A stretch of 64,000 nucleotides of DNA. It comes from an uncultured Gemmatimonadaceae bacterium. GTDB lineage: Bacteria > Gemmatimonadota > Gemmatimonadetes > Gemmatimonadales > Gemmatimonadaceae. The stretch lies in the NCBI GenBank assembly GCA_963822945.1, contig CAWGJO010000021.1, positions 256,001 to 320,000 of the forward strand, written 5' to 3'. Position numbers and translations under genes: made by a program. Each line of letters starts with the position of its first letter. The stretch's first letter is position 1. The notes beneath the pieces were generated by a model. It did no database searches. It had not been told where the DNA came from and saw nothing but the letters and a program-made list of their open reading frames with translations. This document shows, piece by piece, positions 4,643 through 44,822 of the stretch.

Positions 4643-5971
4643 ATGCGACCCGTAGTCTTGGCGAGCATCGTCGCGCTCCCGCTGACGCTGGGCTGCGGCA
4701 GCGACGACGGCAGCGGAAGTGGACCGCCGGCGGGCGGCGCCGCCGGCAGTGCGGGCTCGGCCGCCGGCGGCAACGGTGGCGTCGGCGCCACGGACGCGGG
4801 GTTTCCGTCAGGCGGAGCCGGCGGCAACGCGGGCAGCAGCGGCAACGCGGGCAGCAGCGGCAACGCGGGCAGCAGCGGCAACGCGGGCAGCGGCGGGTCG
4901 GGAGGGGATCCCAACTACACCGCCGACGGCTGCTTCAAATGGACGGAGCAGCTCTCGCTACAAGCTGCCGTCGATCAACACGACTGCGTCGAGGTCCAGC
5001 CCGGAACCTACACCCTGACTCAAACCGTGGCCGTCAAGCCCGGCCACACTCTCCGAGGAGTGAGCGCTGCGCAGTCCATCCTGAAGGCGAGCCAGAGCGC
5101 GTGGACCTTCGGTTGCTGCGACGCCATGATCAGCGACACTCTTCCCGCAACGCCGGAAGCCAACCCTTTCCACGTTCAGAAGCTCACCTTGGACGGCGCG
5201 GGCGTGGCGACCTACAACGTCTGCTGCCGCGGCTATGTGGTGGAAGACTCCGTGCTCGAGAACTCGCGCTGCTCCGCCATCGGCGCCGCGGGCAAGGGCG
5301 TGACGGCGAAGAACAACCAGATGCTCTACAGCGCCCAGCCCACCAACGTGCCGGGCAAGGGCAGCGTGAGCTGCGCGACTGGCGGTTTCGGCGGCGTTGC
5401 CGAAGGCGCCGCCATCTACTCCGAGGCCAAAGCCGCCACTCTTGGCACCGTGATTGACGGCAACACCATCAAGTTCAGCTTCGGACCCGCCATGGACATC
5501 AACGGCGCCTGGGGCGGCGTGTTCACCAACAACCAGGTGTCCGACAACACGGCGTGGGCCGCGGTCAGCCTGTATGGCGCCAGCAACTGGCTGATCCAGG
5601 GCAACACCATCAGCCATCCGGCGACGGAGCCGCCCCAGCCGTACCATCCGTATTGCGCCACCGGCCCGAATGGCGGGCACTCCGCCGGCATCTTCCTGTG
5701 CCAGGACACGGACGCGAACAACCTCGTCGTCAACGGCAACACCATCACCGGCAACAAGACCAGCAGCTTCTACGGCATCCTCAGCGTGGGCGCGGACGAG
5801 GTGAAGGCGTACTGGGCCCCGCGCAACAACACGTTCTCCGGCAACGACGTGTTCGGCAGCAACGTCGGCTGCGCCGACGACTTCAAGCCCGGCCAGTGGC
5901 TCACGGACAAGAACGACTGGACCGGTAACAACTGCCAAGGCTCCCCGAACACGGGCCCCAGCTACTTCTGA
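4643..5971 (+). CDS. Lipoprotein with right-handed parallel beta-helix (pectin lyase-like) domain
   Basis: MRPVVLASIVALPLTLGC lipobox, Gly-rich linker, VQPGTY, repeated I.GNTI/NN.F.GN motifs. Confidence 0.75.
   Translation: MRPVVLASIVALPLTLGCGSDDGSGSGPPAGGAAGSAGSAAGGNGGVGATDAGFPSGGAGGNAGSSGNAGSSGNAGSSGNAGSGGSGGDPNYTADGCFKWTEQLSLQAAVDQHDCVEVQPGTYTLTQTVAVKPGHTLRGVSAAQSILKASQSAWTFGCCDAMISDTLPATPEANPFHVQKLTLDGAGVATYNVCCRGYVVEDSVLENSRCSAIGAAGKGVTAKNNQMLYSAQPTNVPGKGSVSCATGGFGGVAEGAAIYSEAKAATLGTVIDGNTIKFSFGPAMDINGAWGGVFTNNQVSDNTAWAAVSLYGASNWLIQGNTISHPATEPPQPYHPYCATGPNGGHSAGIFLCQDTDANNLVVNGNTITGNKTSSFYGILSVGADEVKAYWAPRNNTFSGNDVFGSNVGCADDFKPGQWLTDKNDWTGNNCQGSPNTGPSYF
4823..4893 (+). repeat. 18-bp tandem repeat (GGCAACGCGGGCAGCAGC, about 4 units) encoding the GNAGSS linker
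   Basis: Directly visible, in frame inside the lipoprotein. Confidence 0.85.
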
Positions 5972-5976
5972 GAACT

Positions 5977-6003
5977 TGTTGGTCCGCCGGGGAAGCGCCG
6001 CGG
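5977..6003. repeat. REP-like 27-bp repeat unit TGTTGGTCCGCCGGGGAAGCGCCGCGG between convergent genes
   Basis: 2 mismatches to the reverse complement of 40145-40171; related unit at 14983-15009; GTCCGC…GCGGAC hairpin. Confidence 0.7.
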
Positions 6004-6007
6004 ACGC

Positions 6008-7207
6008 TCAGAAGTGGTCCTTGGGGGGGCTGCTGCCGAGCGTGACATCGTCGACCAGTACGCGCGCACGCTCGAGGTAGCCCGGCTTCGCCTTGTTGTG
6101 GTCGGGCGTGGGGTGCCAACCCAGTAGCGGGCGGCTGCGGTAGCGTACGGGCCAGGCAGGCTCTTGCCCGAGCCTTTCTTGGGCCAGGGCGATGGCCAGC
6201 GGGCGGAACCAGGTCGACCAGGCGTCGCTCTGGTTGCTGTCGACTCGCAGGGTGCTGAGGCCGCTGTAGACGACCTGACGATGCTTGGCGCGGCGCTGGG
6301 GCGAAGTCCAGCAGTAGCCGCCGTCCGGTCGCCGGCTGGCGCGCAGCGCCGGAAGGGCGCGCGCGAGGGCGTCGCGCACTTCGCGCTCCTGCCTGGAGCC
6401 GTCGGCCTCGAGCTTGGCGAGAATGTCGATGGCGTCCAGGTCCTCGCACGACCCGCCGCCGGGCGCGCTCCACAGTCCGGTGCTCTCTTGCAGCTTCAGT
6501 GTGGAGGCGACGGCGGCGGACTGATGGAAGATGGGCCTGCCCAGGTACTGGTAGAAGCCGTAAACATGAAACGCTCCCGCCATCCCGTTGAACAGGGAGG
6601 CGCCTTGTTGCGTTCCCCAGTAGCCGGTCTTGGGATCCTGACGCTTGTCGAGCCAGTCGAGGACGCGATGGGCGGCCGGCGAGCTCGAACCCTCGGCTTC
6701 AATCAAGAAGTAGAGCAGGAACATCACGTAGTTGCTGGCGAACCAGAAGTCGTCGAAGCCCAACGTCCCCAGCCAAGGCATCACCACCGAATCCGAGGTG
6801 AAGGGCTCGATGAAAGACAAGCGCTGTGGTGGCTCGGCATCCAGCGCGTCGAGCGCATGCAGTGCGAAGTAGGTCTCCTGCCACGACAAATAGGTGGGAG
6901 TGAACTTCCGCAAGTTCAGCACGATACTGTCGCCGTGCTGCGGATCGCGGAACGTTCCGTCGGGCTGCTGGCAGCTGGAGATGGACTCAATCAGCTCCCG
7001 GCGGCGCTGCGCCGGAAGCCCTGGCAGCGCCCCGAGCGTCTCTTGCGCCAGCACTCCAAAGCAGGTTGCCAACAACGTCTTGGGACAGCCCACGGCAAAG
7101 CGATAGCCGCCGTCACACCCGAGCGCCTGCTCCAGGAAGCGTGCGGTGTGTTCCATGTCCGCGCGAGTTTCGCGACGTGGGGCTTCGAGAGTGGCGGCGA
7201 CCTTCAT
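6008..7207 (-). CDS. Prenyltransferase/squalene-oxidase-repeat (alpha/alpha toroid) protein
   Basis: Repeated Q.PDG[TG]F-type motifs: SCQQPDGTF, WLDKRQDPKTGYWG, LKLQESTGLW, SRRPDGGY. Confidence 0.65.
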   Translation of the reverse strand: MKVAATLEAPRRETRADMEHTARFLEQALGCDGGYRFAVGCPKTLLATCFGVLAQETLGALPGLPAQRRRELIESISSCQQPDGTFRDPQHGDSIVLNLRKFTPTYLSWQETYFALHALDALDAEPPQRLSFIEPFTSDSVVMPWLGTLGFDDFWFASNYVMFLLYFLIEAEGSSSPAAHRVLDWLDKRQDPKTGYWGTQQGASLFNGMAGAFHVYGFYQYLGRPIFHQSAAVASTLKLQESTGLWSAPGGGSCEDLDAIDILAKLEADGSRQEREVRDALARALPALRASRRPDGGYCWTSPQRRAKHRQVVYSGLSTLRVDSNQSDAWSTWFRPLAIALAQERLGQEPAWPVRYRSRPLLGWHPTPDHNKAKPGYLERARVLVDDVTLGSSPPKDHF

Positions 7208-14431: not shown

Positions 14432-14976
14432 GCAGTGGGCAAGACGGACCGGCCACGGCGCTCTCGGGGGACCCAGGACGGCAGCCCGTCGCGAAAAGAC
14501 AAGCGCGAGGTGTACGAGCGGGACCACGCGCAGTGCGCCTACGTCTCGGAGGACGGCGTGCGCTGCGCGTCCAAAGCGTTTCTTCAGTACGACCATGTCG
14601 AGCCGCGGGCTCTCGGCGGCAGCGGCAAGGCCGACGAGAGCCGGCTGCTCTGCCAGAGAGCACAACTTGCATCACGCAAAACAGGTTTTCGGCCGGGAGC
14701 CCGTGGAGCGAGCGATGGACTTGCGCCAGCGAAAGTCACAGCCAGCCGAACTGGGTCCCGCGGAGCAGAAGCGGCAAAAGCTCCTCGCCGCGCTCATGGC
14801 GCAGGGCTTCAAGAAGGCCGAGAGCAAGCAGGTCGTGGCCAACGTGGCGCGCGACGCGACCTCGTCCATGGAAGAGCTGCTCCGCCGTGCGCTCGCGTTG
14901 CTCGTTCCGGGATGACTTCAGCGCCACCGTCGACGTCGCGCTGGAAAAGCGCACCCACTAAGGTGTGAGGAGAGCC
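14432..14976 (+). mobile_element. 5'-truncated copy of the TIR-bounded HNH element (HNH and C-terminal domain fragment plus downstream TIR 14952-14976)
   Basis: Colinear high identity with the reverse complement of 38521-39069; ends in CACCCACTAAGGTGTGAGGAGAGCC, identical to the downstream end of the full copy. Confidence 0.85.
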
Positions 14977-14982
14977 AGATTT

Positions 14983-15013
14983 TGTTGGTCTTCCGCGAAA
15001 GCGCCACGGACGC
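14983..15013. repeat. REP-like repeat unit adjacent to the element end
   Basis: TGTTGGTCTTCCGCGAAAGCGCCACGGACGC aligns with 5977-6007. Confidence 0.6.
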
Positions 15014-15499
15014 TCAGAAGTAGTCCGTCGGGTCCAAGTCGCGGAACTCGCAGTAGGCCACCAGGTCGGCGCGAATCAGCCGGAGAGCGATGGCGACGGC
15101 CAGCACGTCGTCGAGTTGGCCGATGCCCGGTATGGCGTCGGGGATCAGGTCCGTGGGGCTGATGAAGTACAGCGCCGCCGCCACGGCCACGGCCAGCGTG
15201 TACCAGCGCACCCGCCGATAGCGCCCCGCCCAATAGTCGTCCACCAGATCCAAGAGCAGGCGCACGCGATTGGTGAGCTTCTGCATGCGATCGGGGATCT
15301 CGCGCAGTTTTTCGAACACCATCTGCCGCGATTCGTGCAGCCGGTCGAGCTGACGATGACGGAGATTGCGCGTCGCCCGGCGCAGCACTTCCAGGATGCG
15401 CTTGTCGTCCGTCAGCGGCTCCGACACCGGTGCCGCAGCCGACGGCGGCGCGCTGTCGGCACCATTGGCAGATTCGGCAACATCGGAATGTCCAGCCAT
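15014..15499 (-). CDS. DUF1232 (YkvA-like) protein
   Basis: ALYFISPTDLIPDAIPGIGQLDD signature. Confidence 0.9.
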   Translation of the reverse strand: MAGHSDVAESANGADSAPPSAAAPVSEPLTDDKRILEVLRRATRNLRHRQLDRLHESRQMVFEKLREIPDRMQKLTNRVRLLLDLVDDYWAGRYRRVRWYTLAVAVAAALYFISPTDLIPDAIPGIGQLDDVLAVAIALRLIRADLVAYCEFRDLDPTDYF

Positions 15500-34378: not shown

Positions 34379-35567
34379 TCAACTGAGAAAGCGGCATGCC
34401 CGTCTCACCAGGTCTATCCCCGCGTCCAGGGCCAGGACCTGCTCCTGATTGGATTGCCTCAGCGACAGCGAACGGTCCCGCGCCTCCCGGGCGCCCACCA
34501 CCACGAAGAACGGCACCGCCGCTTCGTGGGCGCGCGCGACACGACGCGCGAGGGAGTCCCTACCTGGGTCCAGGCGTGCCCGCACGGAACATCGCTGGAG
34601 CGCTTCCAGAACTTCTCCAGCGTAGCTCTGCTGCAGCTTCGGAAATCGCAGTCACCACGACCTGGTCCGGCGCGAGCCACGCGGGCAGCACGCCGCCGTG
34701 GTGCTCGAGTAGCACGCCCAGGAAGCGTTCCACGCTGCCGTACAGCGCCCGGTGCAGCATTGCCGGCCGGCGCCGCGCACCTCCCGAGTCCACGTAGTGG
34801 ATGTCGAAGCTCTCGGGCAGCACGAAGTCGAGCTGTATCGTCCCACACTGCCACGCCCGACCGAAGCAATCCCGGAGCGACAGCTCGAGCTTGGGCCCGT
34901 AGAAGGCTCCGGCTCCGGGCTGCTCCGTGTACTCGAGCCCGGCCCTCTCGGCGCTGGACGCCAACAGGGCCTCGGCCCGATCCCAGATCTCATCGGAGCC
35001 GGTGCGCTTCTCCGGCCGGAGTGACAGTGCGACCGCCACGTCGTGAAACCCGAACGCCGCGTAGAGATCGAACAGTCCCCTCAGAAAACGCACGACCTCG
35101 TCCTGGATCTGGTCCGGCGCGCAAAATACGTGGCCGTCGTCCTGGGTGAACTGCCGCAGGCGAAACAGGCCCTGCAGCGTGCCGCTGGGCTCGTCTCGAT
35201 GCACCACGCCGAGCTCGGCAAGCCGCACCGGCAAGTCGCGGAAGGATGCCGCCCGGCGTCGGAAGATCTCCACGTGCCCGGGGCAGCTCACCGGCTTGAG
35301 CGCCGCCTGCTCCGCCTGGAGCACGAACATGCCTTCGGGAAAGCTGTGCCAATGGCCGCTTCGCTCCCAAATCGCCTTCTTCAGGAGCTGCGGTGTGCGC
35401 ACTTCTTCGTAGCCCTGACGCTCCAGCTGCCGGCGCGCGGCCAGCTCCAGCTGTCGAAACAGGGACAAGCCCCGGGCGTGCCAAAACACCATCCCCGGTG
35501 CCTCTTCCTGAAAGTGAAAGAGATCGAGGCGCTTGCCTATTTGCCTGTGGTCGTTGTCGTCGAGCAT
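34379..35567 (-). CDS. thrS: Threonine--tRNA ligase, short form without N-terminal TGS/editing domains (one frameshift near 34630)
   Basis: Starts at DHRQIGKRLDLF; KPVSCPGH, FTQDDGH, GAFYGPK, WQCGTIQLDF, HRALYGSVERF, anticodon domain VVVGARE. Confidence 0.92.
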
Positions 35568-35622
35568 GACTCGGTCCTGTCGTCTGAGGCCGGACCGACG
35601 GAGCTCCTGGTGGCCAAATGCC

Positions 35623-35651
35623 AAAAGCCCCGTCGGTTTCCCGGCGGGGCT
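35623..35651 (-). terminator. Attenuator terminator hairpin upstream of thrS
   Basis: AGCCCCGCCGG-GAAA-CCGACGGGGCT followed by TTT on the minus strand. Confidence 0.8.
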
Positions 35652-38520: not shown

Positions 38521-40111
38521 GGCTCTCCTCACACCTTAGTGGGTGCGCTTTTCGAACGCGGCGTCGACGGTGGCGCTGAAATCATCCTGGAACGAGCAAC
38601 GCGAACGCAAGGCGGAGCAGCTCTTCCATGGACAAGGAGGTCTCGTCGCGCGCCACGTTGGCCACGACCTGCTTGCTCTCGGCCTTCTTGAAGCCCGGGC
38701 CAGGAGCGCGGCGAGGAGTTTTTCCCGCTTCTGCTCCACGGGATCCAGCTCGGCTGGCCCCGACTTTCGCTGGCGCAAGTCGATCGCTCGCTCCACGGGC
38801 TCCCGGCCGAAAACCTGTTTTGCGTGATGTAAGTTGTGCTCTCTGACAGAGCAGCCGGCTCTCGTCCGCCTTGCCGCTGCCACCGAGAGCTCGCGCGCTC
38901 GACATGGTCGTACTGAAGGAACGCCTTGGACGTGCAGCGCACTCCGTCCTCCGAAACGAAGGCGCACTGCGCGTCGTCCCGCTCGTACACCTCGCGCTTG
39001 TCTTTTCGCGACGGGCTGCCGTCTTTGGTCCCCCGAGAGCACCGTGTCCGGTCCGTCTTGCCCCACTGCTTGTTCTCGAGCTCGCGGATGAGCGCATCCA
39101 GGGCGCGCTCAATCACGATCTCGAGCTCCCGGCTCACGTGGCTCATCAGATTGCGCGCGTGCTCGAGCTTGTCCCGGAGGCGCGCGCTTGCCGTGAACTG
39201 CACACCGAAGCGCTCCTCGGAAAGCGGCTCGACCTGCGGCCGCGGCCCAGCGGGCGCGCCGTCCAAGCCCAGGTGGCCCTGCTCGCCTTTCGGCGACAGC
39301 GGCTGCACGCAGTCTGGGACGTCCGGCTTCGGGAACCAGCGAGCCAGGATCTCGCGAATTGCCGCCTTCGTCTTTCCCGCGGCTTCCTCCAGGAGTTTCT
39401 CATGGTTTTCCGCCGTCAGGTGAGGCGCGAGGAGCGACAGTCCCGACAGATGCAGCCTGCCGTCGGCCAGCATCTCCAGCACCAGTGGGTACCGGTGCGC
39501 CGAGCGCGTGCCGGAGATGGCGCGATGCGCGGTGCCCTCGCTCATGCCGAAGCCCCGCACGCAGAAGTCGAACATCGACGAATAGCCGCGAAGCAGATGC
39601 AGCTCGCGCGCTTCGATCACCGCGAGGTGCGCCAACAAGAGTGCCGTCGCTTTTCGCCGCTCGCCGTTGGCGGACAGTGCGCTGGTCCAGAGATCGCGAT
39701 CAGAAAGCTGCGTCAGCGTGGCAACCGATTCGTGCAATGACATGAGGTCCTCCCCAGGGTTGTCTCCGGCATATCACGGTGAAATTCGCCCTCGTGAGCG
39801 GCGCGCCAGCGCGCTTTCACGACTGCGAACCCTTCGAAACTCGATTTCGCTTCGGAGCTCCATTCACGTGCGCGTGAGCGCGAACAACGCGCGCCTCCCG
39901 AACGAGCGACGAAATCGAAACGCCGCTCCCGCGACGACCCGTCAAACAAATTCGACAGGGCACGGTCGATTTCGCGCGCCGCTTTCCATGCGCATCAGTC
40001 GACCGGGGCAAGGAAACGATGGTGCGCTCGCACGCCCCACCCCAGGAGCGCGCCACGCACCCGGCCATTGCCACGACCTGTTTGCCCACCCACGAAGATG
40101 TGAGGAGAGCC
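38521..40111 (-). mobile_element. 1591-bp IS-like element with ISL3-like 25-bp TIRs carrying a DUF222-like/HNH gene, no DDE transposase
   Basis: 38521-38545 GGCTCTCCTCACACCTTAGTGGGTG versus reverse complement of 40087-40111 GGCTCTCCTCACATCTTCGTGGGTG (23/25); T-rich flanks; second partial copy at 14432. Confidence 0.8.
38582..39743 (-). CDS. DUF222-like N-terminal domain + HNH endonuclease + RuvA-C-like helical tail (frameshifts)
   Basis: LLAHLAVIEARELHL.RGYSSMFDFC, GRLHLSGL.LLAPHLT.EN; VYERD..QCAF…C…LQYDHV…GG…LLC/REHN; GFKKAE…EELLR.A; GGAGG RBS. Confidence 0.82.
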
Positions 40112-40117
40112 TTTTTT

Positions 40118-40171
40118 TGTTGGTCCGGCGCGACGTCCGTCGGGCCGCGGCGCTTCCGCGGCGAACCAACA
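40118..40171. repeat. Inverted pair of REP-like units (TGTTGGT…ACCAACA)
   Basis: 40145-40171 reverse complement matches 5977-6003 at 25/27; 40118 begins with the same TGTTGGTCCG. Confidence 0.7.
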
Positions 40172-41391: not shown

Positions 41392-42507
41392 ATGCGCATC
41401 CAATCCCTGCTCGGTCCCCTCGTCCTCGTGGCCCTCGCTTCCGGCTGCTCCGCGGCCACGGGAGACCCGACCGAGACCGGAGAGGGGACCGGACGCGCCG
41501 CCGAGCGAGTCAGCCAGGTCTCCAGCGCCTATTGCAGCATCCAGGTGAGCGGCCACGGGTCCGTGGACATGGAGCTGGACTACCTGCCGCACGTGATCGC
41601 TTGCGAGAACAACGGAGCCGGACTCGAAGCGTTGAAGGCGCAAGCAATCGCTGCGCGCAGCGTGGCCTACTACAACATGGCGACCCAAGGCTCGATCTGC
41701 GATGGCCAAGGGTGCCAGGTCTACAGCTGCAGCAACAAGCCGGGCCCCCTGCACTACCAGGCCGTGGCCGAGACCGCCCAGCAGTACTTGTCCTATTCGA
41801 ACATGCTCACCTACGGCTTCTACGTGGCCGGGGACTCCGGCGTGTCGGGTCCGGCCTGCGTGGATAGCGGCGGCTCCACCACGAAGTGGGTGACTTTCAA
41901 CGACGGAAAGTCCGGCACCAGCGTGACCCAGACGAAGCTCGGCTACGTCGGTCCGCCCGGCTTCGGCCAGAACCGCGGGTGCATGAGCCAGTACGGAGCG
42001 CGCTGCCTGGAGGACAACGGCCACAACTACGTGGGCATCCTGCGCTTTTACTACGGCAACGACATCAACGTGATCACCGCTCCCGGCAACTGCGACGTTC
42101 CGACCGTGGATCCCGGCACGCCCACGCCGACGCCGGACCCGACGCCCGAGCCCACTCCGGAACCCACGCCGGATCCGGGCGGCACGCCTCCGGCGCCGAG
42201 CGCCGGCTCCTGTCAGGGATTGTGCGGCAGCCCCAACGCGGCGCCCGGCTCGAGCCCTAGCTGCTACTGCGACGACCAGTGCACCGGCTACGGCGACTGC
42301 TGCCAGGATTTCACCGCGGCCTGCGGCTCGACACCGCCCGCACCGCCGCCGGAACCGACCCCCGCGCCCTCGCCCAGTGGCGGAAGCTGCATGGGTCAGT
42401 GCTGGAGCTCGACCCCCGCGGCCGGCTCGAGCCCCGCTTGCTACTGTGACGCGTCTTGCATCGGTTTCGGCGACTGCTGCGCCGACTTCGTGCCCGCCTG
42501 CCTGTGA
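41392..42507 (+). CDS. Lipoprotein with SpoIID/LytB domain, PT linker and two somatomedin-B-like Cys domains
   Basis: LASGC lipobox; DYLPHVIACE…EALKAQAIAARS, MSQYGA, ILRFYY; two SC.G.C…CYCD..C…GDCC.DF…C modules. Confidence 0.82.
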   Translation: MRIQSLLGPLVLVALASGCSAATGDPTETGEGTGRAAERVSQVSSAYCSIQVSGHGSVDMELDYLPHVIACENNGAGLEALKAQAIAARSVAYYNMATQGSICDGQGCQVYSCSNKPGPLHYQAVAETAQQYLSYSNMLTYGFYVAGDSGVSGPACVDSGGSTTKWVTFNDGKSGTSVTQTKLGYVGPPGFGQNRGCMSQYGARCLEDNGHNYVGILRFYYGNDINVITAPGNCDVPTVDPGTPTPTPDPTPEPTPEPTPDPGGTPPAPSAGSCQGLCGSPNAAPGSSPSCYCDDQCTGYGDCCQDFTAACGSTPPAPPPEPTPAPSPSGGSCMGQCWSSTPAAGSSPACYCDASCIGFGDCCADFVPACL

Positions 42508-42513
42508 CAGTCG

Positions 42514-44822
42514 CTAGCGGCCGAGCGCCTCGGCGCGGTTGACGATGCGCGGCGTCAGGAAGATGACGAGCTCCCCACGGCTGTCGCTCGCGCGACGCCG
42601 CTGGAAGAGCAGCCCGATCAGCGGAATGTCTCCGAAGAACGGCACCTGGTCGTAGGTTGCGACCGGTGTTGCGTGTGAAGATACCGCCGATCACCGCGGT
42701 GTGACCGTCCATCACCAACAGGTCCGTTTCCGCCTCACGCTTGAGGATGGTCGGATCGCCGCGAGGTGACGTCTGGTTGAAGTCCGGCTCGTCGCGATTG
42801 ATCTTCACCTTCATGCTGATGCTGCCGTCCGCCGTCACGTGCGGCTTCACGAGCAGCTGCAGCTTCGCTTCCTGGAAGGTCGTCTGCACGCCCTGAGCAC
42901 TGATCTGTGAGAACGGGATCAAGGTGCCCTGGCTGATTCGCGCCTGTTGGTTGTCCATCGTCAGGATGCGCGGGCTGGACAGAATCCGCAGCATGCCGCT
43001 GGACTCCGCCGCTGACAGGCGAACCGCCAGGTTGATGGTGTTGTCGATGGACCCGAAGGAAAGCCCGATGGCGCCGCCTTGTCCGGTACCGACCGTGGCG
43101 GGCAGGTTGACCGCGAAGTTCGGATTGGGAACCGAGTTGGAGAACGGCGACAGACCCGCAGTGGGCGTGTTCGAGTCGCTGGCACCACCTACCAGACCAA
43201 CGGAGTTCGGAAACACCAGGCCCGTCGAGTTGCCCGTGGCACCAGAGAAGGTGGCGTCACCGCCCCACTGAATGCCGACGTCGCGCAGATAGCGGCTCGT
43301 AGCCTCCACGATGCGCGCTTCGACGAGCACCTGCGGTGTCTGAGTGTCCAGGGACCGCGTTAGCTCTTCGATCTGGTTCAGGTTGCCAGCGACGTCGCGC
43401 ACGATCATCACGTTGGTGCGCTCGTCTACCGCGATGGTCCCGCGTTCGACTGAGCAGATCCTTGGCTCGCGCTTGGATGTCCCCGGCGTTGGCGTAGCTC
43501 ACCGGAATGAGCCGCGTCTCGATGGGAGCGAGCTGCATTTCCTGCTTGCGCCGCGCAATGGCCATCTCGCGCTCTTTCTCCAGATCGGAGAGCGGTGCCA
43601 CGCGGATCATGTTGCCCTGGCGCACCATGCCCAGGCCTTTGGCTTGAAGCACCACGTCCAAAGCCTGATCCCAGGGCACGTTGCGCATGCGAATCGTGAC
43701 GCTGCCCGACACGTTGTCGGCGGTGACGATGTTCACTCGACCGACGTCCGCGAGCAGCCGGAGCACGTTGTGAACGTCAGCGTCCTTCAGGTCCAAATCG
43801 ACACGGCGGCCCGTGTAGCGTCCGCGCGCCTGACCCAGGATCCCAGGGCTGACGGCGGCGGCTTCGTCGCCCGCCGTTCGCTCCACGGCGCCTTCGGCAT
43901 AGCCGTCGTGAACCTTGGGAATGTCGGCGAATTCCGGCTCCACGTAGACCGTGCGCGTCTTGCGCGCGACGCCTCCATCGCGAGCCACGCCAGTCACGCT
44001 GGAAGGCAGCGCGCCGGGCTTGTAGAACGACCAAACCAGGCTGTTGCCGCGCTTGGCGACGTGATTTTCCGACTCGCCGGCCTCGACCTCGATCACCACC
44101 TCGTCGCTGGAGCCATCGGGCGCGTAGCTGGACACCGCGTTGATGGTTCCGCCAAACGCCGTGGCATCCAGAGTACGCGTCAGGGCCTTGGGCAAGCTGG
44201 CGCCGTCCAGCACCAGGCGCGCACGGTTCTTCCCGCTCTTGCCCAGCCGATAGCGCACGCCCTGCGACAGGTCGATCACGACGTCGTCCTGACCCGCCTT
44301 GTGCTCGAAGCGCACGTCGGAGACCCGCGCCACCCCGGTGGGGGCCTCGGGCTCCGCCGCTTTCAGCGTGATGGGCTTCTTCTCGTCCAGCACGCCGAGC
44401 TTGCCGGGCTTGAAGACCACGACCAGCTTGGTGCCTCGCACGCTGACCGAGTACTTTGCGTCCTTCAGCAACGTGACGAGCACACGGGTCGTCTTGGACC
44501 CGGCGTTGTCGAAGGTCTGGGCGAGCACGCCGCCGATCACGCCGGCGTGCTTGGTAACCGCTCCGGGTGCCCCACGGATGTCCGCATCCGGCACGTCGAT
44601 GATGAGCCGCTTGCGTTGCTTGTCCAAGCGCGCGGAGAACGTGGGCGCCGCGGTGAAACTCACAATCACCTGAGCGGCCCCGGTATTTCCCGTGGGCGCG
44701 ACTTGAATTCGAGTCGCATGCCTCGAGGCGCTACCAGCCGCTTCGGCGCGGCTGGGCGTCAGGATGGCAAGCGCCAGGCCCAGAGAGAGGGCGCTGGTAA
44801 GACGGGGCGAAGTCCACCTCAT
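42514..44822 (-). CDS. pilQ: Type IV pilus secretin with AMIN domains (frameshifts)
   Basis: DLDLKDADV, NVPWDQALD, PQVLVEARIVE, SSPRILT.DN, TAVIGGIF, VPFFGDIPLIGLLF, FLTPRIV. Confidence 0.95.

Follow-up and report, generated by a model that had tools for sequence, protein, structure and literature searches.

A transposase-less element with ISL3-type ends carries an HNH nuclease gene whose relatives lie within the ends of unrelated insertion sequences

The window (the whole stretch of 64,000 nucleotides analysed here, on contig C21 of genome bin G000) contains a 1591-bp element bounded by terminal inverted repeats that start with GGCTCT (38521–38545 and 40087–40111) and are identical at 23 of 25 positions. 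By chance about 0.003 such repeat pairs, no more than 2 kb apart, would be expected in the whole window, and the coordinates and identity of the repeats given in the earlier note were reproduced. That note had described a nuclease gene as the only gene inside, with no open reading frame for a DDE transposase. Pfam found no transposase domain in the element's three long frames, as claimed, but the nuclease gene itself is frameshifted, with single-base indels relative to its relatives at 38696, 38842 and 38896, so that the tail of the HNH domain and the RuvA_C module land in other frames; the only Pfam match on the three frames was RuvA_C (E 5.9e-6), outside the 404-aa frame. Since a secretin gene on the same contig (PilQ-like, window positions 42311–44822) is likewise split over two frames, the indels may be long-read errors. 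A threonyl-tRNA-synthetase-like frame at 34560–35624 also looks short, which fits assembly indel errors.

Features of the element and its surroundings (positions in the window)
Feature	Position	Strand	Basis or remark
Non-autonomous element, ISL3-type ends and HNH cassette, 1591 bp	38521..40111	-	Repeats, depth steps, empty-site-like joint
Right (downstream) terminal repeat	38521..38545	+	Contains a stop codon in register with the stop of the L243 transposase
Gene for a DUF222-related/HNH/RuvA-domain-III protein, ~386 aa, frameshifted	38582..39743	-	Intact relatives 383–390 aa
RuvA C-terminal (domain III)-like module	38594..38695	-	Pfam RuvA_C E 5.9e-6; predicted RuvB docking
HNH nuclease domain, approximate, spans two indels	38807..39008	-	Conserved residues, Pfam, structure comparison
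N-terminal helical domain, weakly ParB/KorB/Spo0J-like, putatively DNA-binding	39324..39743	-	Structure model of P0004
Conserved non-coding core with TTGAC-like and TGRTAT motifs	39771..39945	-	Kept with the HNH gene whatever the ends
ISL3 leader motif GCGCAYGG, contains the MRMES ATG	39986..39993	-	97–131 nt from the left end in 5/7 sequences
Left (upstream) terminal repeat	40087..40111	-	25/25 with the left end of the ISL3 transposase element L098
Target: REP-like palindromic repeat of GCGCCGGACCAACAA type, at its T-rich edge; outside the element	40112..40171	+	Motif matches
Truncated second copy, 3' 545 bp, right terminal repeat only	14432..14976	+	92.5% identity over 550 columns

The boundaries of the element recur in other data. 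In four unrelated public runs, with no RNA run among those listed as carrying the sequence, the summed contig depth was higher inside the repeats than outside, and in run X3 it was 51.5 inside versus 2.7 outside at the left end and 11.4 versus 1.0 at the right end, where a loose end of the same run shows another flank. One contig of run X4 carries an empty-site-like joint (38515>40112) at a depth of 3.1, with unknown letters between the flanks, and a metagenome contig (L097) has the element's left end in a different flank. The earlier note had also reported a second copy 24 kb away; the same right end is present there, but the copy consists only of the 3' 545 bp and has one end. At a third site (L016; C21:195326-195383) a lone ISL3-type end occurs with no HNH gene, and about 58 bp of interior at that site resemble the element's right end. 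The region 38521 to 40111 is thus a real, non-autonomous, ISL3-ended mobile element.

In order to establish where the ends came from, the exact end pattern was scanned for in metagenome contigs, where it matched two loci (L097 and L098), and in genome and viral contigs, where it matched none. L098 is a 1.5-kb metagenome contig that covers a left half only; its left-end 25-mer is identical (25/25) to the upstream repeat of the element, and its transposase has the domains Zn_ribbon_ISL3 (zf-ISL3), HTH_Tnp_ISL3 and the start of DDE_Tnp_ISL3. Allowing two mismatches or fewer, the end pattern was found in 15 of the 401 genomes of the order to which genome G148 belongs, and several of these loci are ISL3 elements. 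One of them (L243) is a complete ISL3 of 1406 bp, whose score exceeds the NCBIfam cut-off for ISL3 and whose 8-bp duplication is perfect; its ends agree with those of our element at 19–21 of 25 positions; L243 and L260 are both complete ISL3s with the same end type and 8-bp duplications. An 8-bp target duplication is the rule for the ISL3 family. It was present in two of the five complete ISL3s examined and absent from the flanks of 38521 to 40111, which are homopolymer-rich (TCATTTTT versus TTTTTTTG). No ISL3 transposase was found in G000 or in G148, and the ISL3s of G149 and G151 do not have these ends; G000 is 88% complete and chimeric at C21, so that the absence from this bin carries less weight.

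The suggestion that a short frame ending FEKRTH-stop and an MRMES start are vestiges of a lost transposase fared less well. The stop of the RTH-stop frame does share its register within the repeat with that of the L243 transposase (FNH-stop), but when the 5' and 3' segments were compared by BLASTX with 120 ISL3 transposases the best E values were 0.95 and 0.29, and vestiges at the protein level were rejected; the MRMES ATG falls in the ISL3 leader motif GCGCAYGG and is not the start of a transposase. The motif itself is probably a remnant of the left end of the donor ISL3. The wider claim, that the element is a non-autonomous ISL3 derivative with a nuclease as cargo, is supported by the identical end of L098, by the complete ISL3s L243 and L260, and by the 8-bp duplication of a relative in G148 (L175). 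Compared with the ISL3 family (NCBIfam NF033550; Pfam PF01610) the element is alike in its repeats of about 25 bp starting with GGCTCT, in its AT-rich flanks, in its size (1.4–1.8 kb) and in the 8-bp duplications seen in its relatives; it differs in having neither a DDE transposase nor a detectable coding remnant of one, and in that insertions cluster beside a REP-like repeat. Because its own transposase is missing, the element stands outside the ISL3 family proper.

The window is most likely, judging by composition and protein relatives, a Polyangiaceae-like segment misjoined into another bin. The tetranucleotide composition of C21 switches near 140–145 kb, whilst all 32 other contigs longer than 15 kb score like the rest of G000, and among named proteins the nearest relatives belong to Polyangiaceae and Myxococcales. 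DNA matches in 60 relatives of G000 were at chance level only (E 1e-4 or worse), because with this switch the kinship of the bin does not cover the window. The REP-like motif matches C21 at 15 places, all beyond 120 kb, and nowhere in the other 3.69 Mb; within the window, REP-like palindromic repeats of the GCGCCGGACCAACAA type occur at 5971–6026, 14977–15032 and 40112–40171. The motif also adjoins many ISL3-type ends in G148 and occurs beside ends in the public runs, and the frequency with which ISL3-type ends lie directly beside REP-like repeats suggests a targeted ISL3 subgroup.

The protein encoded within the element had been described as DUF222-like with HNH and RuvA-C-like parts. The HNH and RuvA_C assignments were borne out; the DUF222 link, for its part, comes from one of 68 homologues (E 1.7e-4) and from a match, with a score of 0.94, to an Atlas cluster of which 12% of the members carry DUF222, the element's own protein having no Pfam match to DUF222 (PF02720). 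Among the same 68 homologues Pfam identified RuvA_C in 45 and HNH in 34, and the residues C260, C270, H280, C299 and H302 are invariant in all 68 rows; intact relatives retain DH, HN and the zinc cysteines. Structural comparisons were made with a model (pLDDT 88.6) of an intact relative, P0004, which is 93% identical, and all of its Z scores were below 8. The N-terminus gave middling scores (Z 6.9, 6.5 and 6.0 to 6s6h, 8qa8 and 1r71), the HNH domain matched that of phage GVE2 (Z 7.5, rmsd 3.4, 75 residues aligned) and McrA (Z 7.2), and the C-terminal module matched RuvA domain III (Z 7.1, rmsd 1.2, 48 residues aligned); a Foldseek search of the model against the PDB returned nothing at E 0.001 or better. 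From its secondary structure, a strand-helix-helix segment after the N-terminal domain is predicted to be a ribbon-helix-helix. From 41 retrieved proteins with 80% identity or more to P0004, 15 of full length were read, and all 15 retain the HNH and cysteine motifs as well as the RuvA_C tail. About ten more distant HNH relatives in G149 (for example L219–L228) have open frames of 540–760 aa, in which a long insert separates the N-terminal from the HNH parts.

The C-terminal module of the HNH protein is predicted to dock RuvB. When the RuvA_C module of a relative from G148 was modelled with the RuvB of the same genome, the complex score was 0.78, compared with 0.00 for the best of three controls, a mark that solved complexes reach in 116 of 157 cases and mismatches in 2 of 215. 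The predicted contacts agree to at least 94%, the partner has a pLDDT of 90, and the RuvB model resembles solved RuvA–RuvB complexes (1ixs, 7pbp). As such complexes have already been solved, the prediction speaks for likeness of the interface and not for binding, and the predictor may owe the score to having learned those complexes.

Upstream of the gene, about 230 bp are homologous across relatives with different types of end. Twenty rows, taken from the window and three other genomes and chosen by the downstream motif, all have the two leader motifs at a spacing of 168–170 bp, and mean column identity in the leader is 66%. The leader was also searched for a guide RNA: the 20 rows gave no consensus pairs, the z score for structure was −0.58, Rfam had no leader match near a gathering score, and neither a 3- nor a 10.5-bp periodicity was detected, many rows having stops in all frames and no frame being conserved. 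The leader is likely to be promoter or operator DNA, and the constant spacing of its motifs, given that it has no RNA structure, suggests that protein and DNA are arranged there in a fixed way. The 3' tail of the element is only 60 bp long and differs between clades.

The same gene family was then followed beyond ISL3-type ends. G148 holds 69 matches to the HNH protein, of which 30 loci were examined. One clade there, about 58% identical to the main clade A, has ISL3-type ends; it includes a complete ISL3-ended HNH element (L175, 1805 bp) whose 8-bp duplication is perfect, although a perfect 8-mer was found at only two (L175 and L161) of the seven paired ISL3-type ends examined in this genome. 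In clade A, 18 of 22 near-full-length copies have TA and IS630-like ends on both sides, and these ends are identical at 17–24 of 27 nt to those of two autonomous IS630 copies in G148, so the genome harbours an autonomous IS630 beside the IS630-ended sister clade. IS630-ended derivatives of 709 and 725 bp occur at separate sites without the HNH frame, and the gene is therefore dispensable in cis for movement. Between two IS630 copies of the same genome (L184:3250-3770) lie three direct repeats of about 150 bp with short variable spacers. A third type of end was met in G064, where four of the five loci examined share one left-end type. A 3-bp flank is a signature of IS5/IS1031-like elements, and an assignment of the G064 ends to these was dropped when NCBIfam identified IS1182 remnants. 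The IS1182 transposase remnants inside the G064 ends grade from both termini (L193, L194) through a scrap (L196) to none (L195), and in loci of G165 IS1182 remnants adjoin the HNH gene.

A quick tree of 45 rows joins the ISL3-ended clade that includes our element to the IS630-ended one (SH-aLRT 96) and places the other ISL3-ended clade elsewhere, so that acquisition of ends must have happened on more than one occasion. Four of the 22 clade-A copies are nested in ISL3-ended elements and a fifth lies inside a related HNH gene, which provides a plain route for swapping ends. Many distant homologues have no recognisable IS ends. Among 80 distant loci none had a best inverted repeat starting with GGCTCT, in a scan that needs an exact 8-nt seed and therefore misses imperfect ends and yields no IS-bounded fraction. 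The ends of other copies had been proposed as the touchstone for an ISL3 origin: this result refutes ISL3 ends as a trait of the whole HNH family, whilst the ISL3 origin of the present copy stands. Other lineages show direct repeats of 33–114 bp, palindromes or nothing clear; HNH relatives L190, L191, L206 and L215 in G149 are flanked by direct repeats of about 105 bp and not by IS ends, and L056, L076 and L094 likewise have direct repeats in place of IS ends (33–114 bp in a MAG of the Acidobacteriota). A free-standing homing endonuclease acting at one fixed homologous site was rejected, the copies occupying unrelated flanks.

The reading frame has been maintained among the relatives. Over 105 pairs of the 15 intact G148 copies dN/dS was 0.18 (0.25 in the HNH domain), compared with 0.70–1.00 in neutral simulations; this comparison, of intact copies only and from a genome other than that of the element, shows purifying selection on the HNH frame in those relatives. 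The copies also recombine, a PHI-like test on 250 sites in 20 copies giving p 0.001. Eight copies in G148 (L144–L151) share a frame-breaking insertion of about 150 bp near codon 60, and for several of them the nearest neighbours are intact copies. Over 143 columns the insertion differs by 1.2% among seven copies whilst the leaders of the same copies differ by 12.4%, a uniformity across diverged leaders that argues for copy-to-copy gene conversion. Seven insertion-broken copies nonetheless had a dN/dS of 0.23, which weakens the argument from selection: the low ratios may reflect older selection spread by conversion and not a benefit to each copy. In a related gene, the IS630-ended copy L134 has inserted at roughly the codon where L144–L151 carry their insertion.

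Taken together, we consider it likely that this is a transposase-less element of the mobile-insertion-cassette type, moved in trans, with a portable core that may promote its own persistence, and the parts of this explanation differ in strength. The ends derive from an ISL3 insertion sequence, as the comparison with L098 and L243 shows. Movement by an ISL3 DDE transposase supplied in trans, with insertion beside REP-like repeats and an 8-bp duplication, is very probable on the present comparisons. In the relatives, the gene and its leader of about 230 bp make up a portable core, which has come to carry ends from at least three unrelated IS families, presumably by landing inside an IS followed by erosion of the transposase or of the inner ends. 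Since its relatives sit within the ends of two other unrelated IS families, the HNH gene resembles a hitchhiker that recurs and is actively maintained, its frame under purifying selection and its copies recombining, as seen in the relatives. In the last step the N-terminal domains would bind DNA, the HNH domain would nick or cut it, and the mimic of RuvA domain III would engage the host RuvB, with recombinational repair then restoring or copying the cassette. That the nuclease and the RuvB module favour the cassette's own persistence in this way is a tentative proposal, to which we give rather less than even weight. More speculative still, and on balance doubtful, is the broader reading of the HNH family as a protein-guided 'guardian' or parasite of DDE insertion sequences, in which nicking or cutting of DNA and hijacking of RuvB through the domain-III mimic would drive copy-to-copy conversion and restoration at donor sites and thereby secure inheritance; on the same doubtful footing, the family would be transposase-independent and would capture ends from one unrelated IS family after another (ISL3, IS630, IS1182).

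Three other explanations were weighed against this one. Two unrelated ISL3 remnants might flank a resident HNH gene, or the whole arrangement might be an artefact of a chimeric, error-prone contig, as the composition shift of C21 near 140–145 kb, the frameshifts in other genes and the lack of a clean duplication at this copy would allow; the same junction of end and interior, however, is found elsewhere in independent data (L097, the second copy and runs X1–X4) and one contig joins both flanks without the element, leaving this explanation largely refuted already and scarcely credible. A second alternative takes up the earlier note's option that the HNH protein mobilises the element. The protein would move the core by a non-DDE route, such as nick-initiated recombination or homing into repeats and ISs, and the IS ends would be the remains of landing sites. 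The constancy of the gene-plus-leader core amid varying flanks, the lineages with direct repeats of 33–114 bp or palindromes in place of IS ends, and the copy-to-copy conversion indicated by the insertion (1.2% over 143 columns, against 12.4% for the leaders) all favour such a route. Wherever ends are clear, though, they carry the signature of an IS family (8 bp for ISL3, TA for IS630) at many unrelated sites, and the HNH-less derivatives show the same signature, of the kind that a DDE transposase leaves. As each end type keeps the target signature of its own IS family, the HNH protein probably does not act as the transposase; the occurrence of the same gene family with IS630 ends in G148 and IS1182 ends in G064, together with the HNH-less derivatives, speaks against the note's option, and we regard mobilisation by the protein as improbable.

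The remaining alternative accepts the same ISL3-mobilised cassette and makes the protein irrelevant to inheritance, the gene serving the host (in defence or damage response) or acting in an addiction-like manner, with the nesting due to chance. The HNH-less derivatives and the eight insertion-broken copies at separate sites are what it would lead one to expect, as are the many distant homologues lacking recognisable IS ends, and the HNH domain resembles McrA-type restriction nucleases (Z 7.2) about as well as homing-type ones. Against it, more than 20 diverged copies (69 matches in G148) would be superfluous for a gene of benefit to the host, no antitoxin-like second gene lies within the element, and the capture of ISL3, IS630 and IS1182 ends, with 4 of 22 copies nested in the rare ISL3-ended elements, suggests a link to mobility. 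It is unlikely, although less so than mobilisation by the HNH protein.

Among described systems those nearest to the element include mobile insertion cassettes, MITEs and transporter ISs, which have IS ends and no transposase of their own and for which mobilisation in trans is expected (PMC3129680, PMC3281130). As far as the accessible text of these papers describes such cassettes, the element is alike in combining IS ends with a passenger gene and no transposase of its own, and unlike in that the passenger is one conserved nuclease cassette, which recurs within the ends of at least three unrelated IS families, can number more than 20 copies in a genome and shows purifying selection in relatives. 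The REP13E12/DUF222-HNH repeats of Mycobacterium, in the part of the source available (PMC10589994), share with it a multicopy gene whose product has an HNH domain at the C-terminus and is DUF222-related at the N-terminus; the element differs in its distant DUF222 link (1/68), its additional RuvA_C module and its explicit IS ends. The nearest functional precedent is TnpB/IscB of IS200/IS605 and IS607, an accessory nuclease carried mostly on non-autonomous elements that favours retention through cleavage of the empty donor site, according to the accessible portion of the report (bioRxiv 10.1101/2023.03.14.532601). The element differs from these in its DDE-type ends, its RuvA-domain-III module and the absence of any structured RNA in our searches. 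The HNH protein scored 21.5 bits against the NCBIfam IscB cut-off of 175, in the HNH region only, with no TnpB family listed, and Pfam gave no RuvC-type family among the 68 homologues. The analogy drawn in the earlier note thus survives loosely, weakened by the lack of a structured RNA and favoured by purifying selection on the gene. No published description of this HNH family on IS ends was found in a search that left subscription journals and supplements outside its reach.

Multicopy DUF222/HNH genes are common, and we know of no explanation so far for their spread. The present data offer a concrete route, in which the gene rides on the ends of any DDE insertion sequence that happens to be present, with intermediates visible in G064. 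The role of the protein is now testable, given a cognate ISL3 end, one genome that carries a cognate IS630, a leader of fixed spacing and a predicted RuvB interface. If the nuclease does not bias inheritance, the element is an unusual but ordinary passenger cassette; if it does, the retention principle of TnpB/IscB would extend to DDE transposons without a guide RNA, and the element would be a case of a mobile element co-opting RuvB. On the broader guardian-or-parasite reading, if it held, the HNH family would stand beside TnpB/IscB as a counterpart that works without RNA, and the spread of multicopy DUF222/HNH genes would be accounted for.
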